Shown here: one piece after another, positions 1 to 264 of the stretch
Position numbering within the stretch: the first letter of the stretch is position 1
How the letters are laid out: every line of letters starts with the position of its first letter
NCBI RefSeq assembly: GCF_003334255.1
Contig: NZ_QOWU01000215.1
Reading direction: 5' to 3' (one strand)
Source: Escherichia coli
Lineage (GTDB): Bacteria > Pseudomonadota > Gammaproteobacteria > Enterobacterales > Enterobacteriaceae
DNA length: 597 nucleotides
Program-made: the position numbers and the translations under genes
Notes under the pieces: model-generated
Told to the model about the DNA's origin: nothing
Databases searched by the model: none
Seen by the model: the letters and a program-made list of their open reading frames with translations, nothing else

Positions 1-1
1 T

Positions 2-8
2 AAGGAGG
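2..8 (+). promoter_or_regulatory. Shine-Dalgarno sequence (AAGGAGG) for ORF1, overlapping an in-frame TAA at 1..3
   Basis: AAGGAGG at 2..8 lies 4 nt upstream of the ATG at 13..15 and is a near-perfect match to the anti-SD complement. The TAA at 1..3 is in the same frame as ORF1 and bounds its start. Confidence 0.6.
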
Positions 9-12
9 AAAT

Positions 13-264
13 ATGGGATACGGTTTACTGGATATTGCGAATCAGTCACGGCGTGAGGCATTACAGGGAATAAGTGACGCCGACAGGCGACGTGAAGAAA
101 TTGAGGCTGCTAACAAGCAGATGGCGGCGCAACAGAAAGCGCAGAACAAGCAGAATATCGGTACGGGCATTGGTACGGGGGCGGCTATGGGCGCTGCCGT
201 TGGTGGTCTCCCCGGTGCGGCTATTGGTGCTGTCATAGGTGGTCTTGCTGGCTCGTTGTTTTAA
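13..264 (+). CDS. Small glycine-zipper protein, 83 aa; predicted single C-terminal membrane helix with a charged N-terminal domain; function unknown (possibly phage or prophage encoded)
   Basis: ATG at 13 follows a strong SD and the ORF ends at TAA 262..264. The track translation ends in ...NIGTGIGTGAAMGAAVGGLPGAAIGAVIGGLAGSLF, with 12 Gly in the last 34 residues and Gly at i, i+4 from G52 to G80. The N-terminal half is rich in R/E/Q/A. Third-position codon usage is GC-biased and enterobacterial-like, consistent with real coding sequence. Confidence 0.8.
   Translation: MGYGLLDIANQSRREALQGISDADRRREEIEAANKQMAAQQKAQNKQNIGTGIGTGAAMGAAVGGLPGAAIGAVIGGLAGSLF

Follow-up and report, generated by a model that had tools for sequence, protein, structure and literature searches.

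A stop codon fused to the next ribosome-binding site at a compact junction in the tail-assembly cluster of a 933W/Sp5-like prophage of Escherichia coli

The start of the window, by which is meant the whole 597-nucleotide stretch of Escherichia coli DNA that was analysed, is an ordinary compact junction within a tail-assembly gene cluster of a prophage, at which the stop codon of an upstream gene is fused to the ribosome-binding site of the next. Positions 1-15 read TAAGGAGGAAATATG, which bears out the original observation that a TAA at 1-3 overlaps the Shine-Dalgarno (SD) sequence of the first open reading frame (ORF1). The third gene that had been expected to end there was also found: in the record of E. 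coli G1/2, an annotated upstream CDS of 148 aa (ORF0) terminates exactly at window position 3, and because its protein is conserved across 19 aligned relatives, the TAA is a genuine stop codon. This TAA forms the first three bases of TAAGGAGG, which pairs with the 3' end of 16S rRNA (CCUCCUUA-3'), and the ATG of ORF1 follows 4 nt on; since all 8 nt of TAAGGAGG are complementary to the anti-SD sequence, the bases of the stop codon double as SD bases. The start of ORF1 is fixed at position 13 by its N-terminus, MGYGLLD, which is kept in distant relatives. The same TAAGGAG layout had been noted at the junction between ORF1 and ORF2 and is present there, with TAAGGAG at 262-268 and ATG at 275. We therefore read positions 1-15, with a probability of about 85%, as a junction between cistrons of a polycistronic late mRNA of the phage, in which the stop of ORF0 is fused to the SD of ORF1 and the ORF1/ORF2 junction is built likewise. 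The observed part of this reading comprises the order of the genes, their stop codons, SD sequences that are strong and unstructured, and the conserved layout. Hereafter, the ORF0/ORF1 and ORF1/ORF2 junctions are termed J1 and J2, respectively, and coordinates marked L001 and L092 refer to the pieces of the G1/2 record that hold the prophage. The features of the window are as follows.

1-3, + strand: stop codon TAA of ORF0 (annotated 148-aa CDS WP_000455643.1, L001 14557-15003; the remainder of the gene is upstream of position 1)
1-8, + strand: SD of ORF1, TAAGGAGG (8 of 8 nt complementary to the 16S rRNA 3' end; 4-nt spacer AAAT at 9-12)
13-264, + strand: ORF1, 83 aa, from the list of open reading frames (L001 15013-15264; Pfam Gly-zipper_YMGG; PHROG 594)
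262-268, + strand: stop codon TAA of ORF1 with the SD of ORF2 (TAAGGAG), from the sequence; 6-nt spacer TGGTGA at 269-274
275-597, + strand: ORF2, first 107 codons and 2 nt, from the annotation (the full gene encodes 421 aa, L001 15275-16540, and runs off the window)

In a nucleotide search, the window was 100% identical to positions 1506395-1506991 of the E. coli G1/2 chromosome (NZ_CP060083.1), as well as to four sister genomes of G1/2. It shares 87.6% nucleotide identity with phage 933W and VT2-Sakai (Sp5), and every one of the 186 phage records that it matched, at 85-97% identity, is Stx-type or Sepvirinae. Judged by its sequence, the element that carries it is an stx-negative 933W/Sp5-like (Sepvirinae) prophage at argW of E. 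coli G1/2. The prophage is ~63 kb long, lies beside a tRNA-Arg gene that is adjoined by a tyrosine integrase and has a 25-bp direct repeat, TTATATCCATTTAACTAAGAGGACA, at both ends (L092 1638 and L001 25113, the latter copy spanning 25113-25137). At the L092 1587-3026 end, the copy of the repeat overlaps the 5' part of the minus-strand tRNA-Arg, and the other copy lies beside yfdC. In the annotation of NZ_CP060083.1 at 1453.6-1516.4 kb, the early region is lambdoid, with a CI-like repressor, Cro and a Q antiterminator, and the annotated late and structural genes comprise lysis genes, a terminase, a gene in the portal position, a major capsid protein of the N4-gp56 type, tail fibres and short-tail genes, with a 2,793-aa LPD38-domain gene at the right end of the prophage. 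In gene order, the annotation matches 933W L0130-L0134 and Sp5 ECs1238-1242. This synteny, the lambdoid early region with Q and structural genes, and the integrase with att repeats place the window in the late region of a 933W/Sp5-like prophage; extension of the sequence in both directions, which had been proposed as a check, thus recovered structural-gene, integrase and att signatures. Neither stxA nor stxB is annotated downstream of Q, between Q and the lysis genes of the G1/2 prophage, and by its annotation the element does not belong to the Stx-converting phages. HsdM and HsdS genes, among others, occupy this Q-to-lysis interval, which in such phages harbours stx, and an MT-A70 methyltransferase gene in the early region is broken by IS150.

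The expected run of tightly spaced genes proved to be four co-oriented genes of 218, 148, 83 and 421 aa with gaps of 2, 9 and 10 nt, followed by the 2,793-aa gene; with this giant gene included, the block is the counterpart of Sp5 ORF76-80. ORF77-78-79 of Sp5 (ECs1239-1241) and L0131-L0132-L0133 of 933W have the same order, the same sizes (148/83/421 aa) and the same gaps (9/10 nt). J2 is identical in Sp5, 933W and the window (TAAGGAGTGGTGAATG), while J1 reads TAAGGGGGCAAT in 933W and Sp5 and TAAGGAGGAAAT in the window; the host prophage differs from both phages in lacking an annotated stx and in its location at argW of a commensal strain. A phage late or structural context had been suggested for the window because strong SD sequences with embedded stops recur in such operons. 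The context stands on the terminase, the gene in the portal position, the capsid, the tail fibres and the synteny, whereas the reasoning behind it does not carry over to the late region as a whole: among its 21 CDS junctions, only two, both in the window, have TAAGGAG with a 9-10 nt gap. Stop-in-SD junctions are a property of this module and its relatives and are not general in the late operon. A promoter-like site was not found inside the four-gene block on the + strand. On either side of the block lies a terminator-like hairpin with a T-run, one directly ahead of the 218-aa gene (L001 13856-13875) and one ahead of the giant gene (16572-16591), and both would need Q-mediated readthrough in the late transcript. 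If Q antitermination falls short here, these hairpins could stop transcription, and the block would then depend on a promoter of its own.

At J2, window positions 259-277 read TTTTAAGGAGTGGTGAATG, with the stop of ORF1 followed by the ATG of ORF2 at 275, and the TGA that ends the spacer TGGTGA closes the ORF2 frame just ahead of this ATG. The window has three copies of TAAGGAG (at 1, 262 and 340) against 0.07 expected, and none of 200 dinucleotide shuffles reached three. The surrounding 30.6 kb contain no further copies, all three falling within 346 nt. As to the two junctions, a gap of 9-10 nt and an SD lying 4-6 nt from the ATG force the SD against the stop codon, so that J1 and J2 share one forced geometry and are not two independent coincidences. 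A chance motif without a real stop at 1-3 is ruled out for practical purposes by the annotated and conserved ORF0, together with the enrichment of the motif over shuffles. The third copy, at 340-346, lies inside ORF2, where it is formed by the codons CGT AAG GAG (R-K-E); it is present in 24 of 28 distinct close relatives, reads TAAGGAA in the remaining four and is absent from distant relatives. As the SD of an internal start it was rejected: the sole in-frame candidate is a CTG, PhiR5_2, GER2, ArgO145 and STEC1589 have lost the GTG that lies out of frame at 357, and distant relatives encode RKAL at this place without GGAG. As no conserved start codon follows it, this copy looks like a by-product of the coding sequence.

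The SD/anti-SD duplex was calculated at -12.1 kcal/mol for both J1 and J2, ranking third to fourth among the 21 late-region genes. The 100-nt regions around J1 and J2 fold less than their shuffles (z = +2.19 and +1.43, respectively), the J1 region being less structured than 200 of 200 shuffles. As the SD is also unpaired in the minimum free energy (MFE) structure, nothing points to its being masked by RNA structure, and an SD-masking hairpin was rejected; neither the SD nor the start is sequestered in the manner of genes coupled through RNA unfolding. An Rfam search of the window gave no match. A 12-nt inverted repeat (251-262/384-395; 92% complementary, arms 121 nt apart) brackets J2. It was rejected as an RNA element on the grounds that its first arm differs in 933W and its second, invariant arm shows no compensating change, and it is probably due to chance.

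Conservation was assessed in a close set of 28 distinct sequences and in a distant set comprising 78 IMG/VR loci, Aeromonas phage phiARM81mr and Vibrio phages, with 22-41% aa identity in ORF2. In the close set, J2 is nearly invariant and its spacer invariant, against a third-codon-position diversity of 0.34 just upstream, and J1 varies just among SD-compatible forms, namely TAAGGAGG, TAAGGGGG and spacers longer by 1 nt. Third-codon-position diversity among the 28 sequences is also low at the 5' ends of ORF1 (0.09-0.10 in window 13-72) and ORF2 (0.04-0.13 in 275-424), compared with 0.22-0.34 deeper in the genes, a pattern that either selection on the initiation regions or mosaicism through recombination could explain. 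Among 24 junction variants (22 scorable) from relatives down to ~22% aa identity, the stop-in-SD layout of J2 has a single exception, locus L070, with a gap of 23 nt. The distant forms of J2, which include TAAGGGGG, TGAGGGGG, TGAGAGGTGAT, TAGGAGG, TAAGGTGG and TGAcGGGAG, use differing stop codons and SD sequences; in each the stop is fused or adjacent to a G-rich SD at a gap of 9-12 nt to the ORF2 start. The glycine-zipper ORF upstream ends in ...SLF in nearly all relatives and in SLFS, SIF or TSLF in a few. At J1, the two frames of distant relatives overlap by 1 nt (TGATG or TAATG) or are separated by 1, 2 or 12 nt, with the SD encoded by the C-terminal Gly-Gly codons of ORF0, and the stop-in-SD form is limited to close relatives. 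On these alignments, J1 is tight throughout, and the layout at 1-15 is the form that it takes in Sepvirinae.

The more remote counterparts in phiARM81mr, Vibrio 1.205.O and D56 have the same gene order (~200 aa, 120 aa, an 80-aa glycine zipper, 440-470 aa and a giant of >2,700 aa) and stop-in-SD junctions of the forms TAAGGGG, TAAGGGGG, TAGGAG, TAGGAGG and TGAGGT. They differ from the window in that ORF2 has just 23-25% aa identity, ORF0 and ORF1 are joined by a -1 overlap or a 2-nt gap, and D56 carries an HNH insert. In D56 (L004 8079-8870), this opposite-strand HNH endonuclease gene is inserted exactly between the homologues of ORF1 and ORF2, which are 926 nt apart, and so interrupts a junction that is conserved elsewhere; the sister phage 1.205.O keeps an intact 9-nt TAGGAGG junction. 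In phage PA36 (L094 1019-3597) and the LC616xxx Stx2a phages, the ORF2 homologue is split by a ~1.3-kb insertion sequence with two 'mobile element protein' ORFs. Since ORF79 is essential for tail formation in Sp5 (PMC5155283), prophages with a split ORF2 homologue are probably unable to make infectious particles.

The proteins of the module are known mainly through Sp5. ORF0 is the homologue of 933W L0131 and Sp5 ORF77/ECs1239 and falls in PHROG 596, of unknown function. ORF1 is the homologue of 933W L0132 and Sp5 ORF78/ECs1240; it has a charged helical N-terminal half and a C-terminal glycine zipper that ends in SLF, and residues 50-82 match Gly-zipper_YMGG (PF13441) with an i-Evalue of 2.2e-6, the value by which the match was judged. 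ORF2 is the homologue of 933W L0133 and Sp5 ORF79/ECs1241, with 84% aa identity to VT2-Sakai H0149; ECs_1241, of 421 aa, has the same place in the gene order. Its N-terminus carries an invariant G/A motif (G3 A5 G7 A10 G11). Sequence searches of the PDB with all four small proteins returned nothing meaningful, Pfam gave no match for ORF0, ORF2 or the 218-aa protein, NCBIfam gave just sub-threshold Gly-zipper matches, and PHROGs lists all four as of unknown function. The predicted model of ORF2 (pLDDT 72) consists of a 116-residue helix, a small beta domain and helical bundles, and its comparison with PDB folds gave no significant match (best E 0.09, TM 0.12); the AlphaFold model of ORF0 (pLDDT 47) was too poor for use. 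A proteomics paper on EHEC phages does not report on these small proteins (PMC12502783).

In-frame deletions in Sp5 showed ORF79 (ECs1241) and ORF80, the giant, to be essential (PMC5155283). In both mutants, DNA was packaged, the heads were normal and tail-fibre labelling was absent, which marks the two as tail-formation genes (PMC5155283). Deletion of ORF76 strongly reduced lysogenization, and ORF77 and ORF78, deleted singly, were outside the essential gene set (PMC5155283). The giant 2,793-aa protein (L001 16609-24990) has a match to a DarB-like antirestriction PHROG at residues 2354-2681 (E = 1.3e-28), a hint that the giant, an essential 'tail' protein in Sp5-like phages, may double as a polyvalent protein that is injected; a literature search on polyvalent proteins together with 933W found nothing. 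Several database labels also bear on ORF1. Its homologues in RefSeq and GenBank commonly carry the label 'bacteriocin', but a class II bacteriocin was rejected, as Bacteriocin_IIc reached just E = 0.0033, beneath the Gly-zipper match, and the neighbours are phage morphogenesis genes. The phiSTEC1589-Stx1c record, apparently in error, calls the ORF1 gene 'N4-family major capsid protein' and gives the label 'portal protein' to the 218-aa gene. Within ORF1, an imperfect direct repeat of 32 nt (81% identity, 36-nt spacing) lies at window positions 178-245 and a further repeat of 12 nt at 157-180; these reflect the repeated GxxxG units of the glycine-zipper coding part. STEC1589 has a 21-nt insertion in this repeat region.

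Such junctions have a close parallel on the host chromosome. In E. coli K-12, 203 of 2,987 co-oriented gene pairs (7%) have gaps of +9 to +12 nt (Huber et al. 2023, PMC10666635). Of 201 such pairs with characterised transcripts, 194 are polycistronic, and the class has been interpreted as one of SD-driven initiation (PMC10666635). Both window junctions fall in this SD-containing class, with gaps of 9 and 10 nt and with TAAGGAGG and TAAGGAG, respectively. As in that class, the SD fills the spacer, and because 9-10 nt leave no room for a terminator or promoter, the message is polycistronic. The class was defined on K-12 chromosomal genes, whereas the window holds phage genes in which the stop codon contributes 2-3 of the paired SD bases. 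Stop/start overlaps (ATGA or TGATG), which act by termination-reinitiation, also join tight co-oriented cistrons, and distant relatives of the module use TGATG or TAATG at ORF0/ORF1; unlike these, the cistrons of the window do not overlap, lie 9-10 nt apart and have a full SD between them. In the favoured reading, ribosomes would initiate separately on each cistron, at its own strong SD, along a late transcript antiterminated by Q. A spacing of 9-10 nt would push the SD onto the stop codon, and the last bases of the stop, be it TAA, TAG or TGA, would lengthen the SD pairing. The arrangement would keep the cistrons on one message, some terminating ribosomes may restart at the next ATG, and the result would be co-ordinated expression of the proteins of the module.

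It is conceivable, although we consider it doubtful, that coupling is obligatory, such that translation of ORF1 and ORF2 would depend wholly or mostly on ribosomes coming straight from termination on the upstream cistron, with the SD holding the post-termination 30S or 70S ribosome and thereby fixing the subunit stoichiometry. The junctions of the module are tight throughout the relatives (-4, -1, +1, +2 or +9 to +12 nt), and J2 keeps its layout in relatives with as little as about 22% aa identity. The glycine zipper stands at the end of ORF1 and the invariant G/A motif at the beginning of ORF2, and Huber et al. report that subunits of heteromeric complexes are over-represented among tight pairs (PMC10666635). 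Against this, the +9 to +12 class is interpreted as independently initiated, and the efficiency of reinitiation in E. coli drops steeply with distance (PMC10666635). Coupled pairs have spacings of about -8 to +6 nt, and only the preceding 218-aa/ORF0 junction (2 nt) is that close, whereas J1 and J2 are not. Strong SD sequences in unstructured RNA would also allow the 30S subunit to bind de novo, and the separation of 926 nt in D56 and the gap of 23 nt in L070 indicate that the ORF2 homologue can be expressed uncoupled. The deletions of Sp5 ORF77 and ORF78 are uninformative on coupling, because the primer sequences left both stop-SD junctions intact (PMC5155283).

A more specific proposal, which we regard as unlikely, is that phages of E. 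coli, Vibrio and Aeromonas alike have retained J2 because the glycine zipper of ORF1 and the G/A motif of ORF2 assemble co-translationally, and that the resulting membrane-active complex builds the short tail or delivers the giant with its DarB-like segment. Less probable still is negative coupling, in which a ribosome pausing at the stop occludes the next ribosome-binding site, so that heavy upstream translation caps the level of the downstream protein. The footprint of the ribosome is of established size, and by geometry alone a ribosome with the TAA in its A site would cover the SD and an ATG 9-10 nt on; the strong SD sequences and the essential ORF2 homologue nevertheless argue for efficient rather than throttled expression, which makes such dosing improbable. 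Recoding at TTT-TAA-G, by which frameshifting or readthrough would fuse ORF1 to ORF2, can be dismissed with near certainty: the TTTT run before AA (259-264) would permit a +1 slip of tRNA-Phe, but the +1 frame reads AAG GAG TGG and then meets TGA at 272-274, right before the ORF2 ATG, frame-1 readthrough halts at TGA 316-318, so that neither frame can yield a fusion, and the sequence of the site differs in distant relatives.

The junction at the window start is of the textbook compact kind, and its genes were already annotated in 933W, Sp5 and RefSeq. The analysis pins the starts of ORF1 and ORF2 firmly, assigns the window to the tail-assembly module of phages that are of medical relevance as a group and shows the 'bacteriocin' label on ORF1 homologues to be unreliable. 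The one mildly interesting point is the retention of J2 across the family, which is a small hint that the ORF1 and ORF2 proteins act together.
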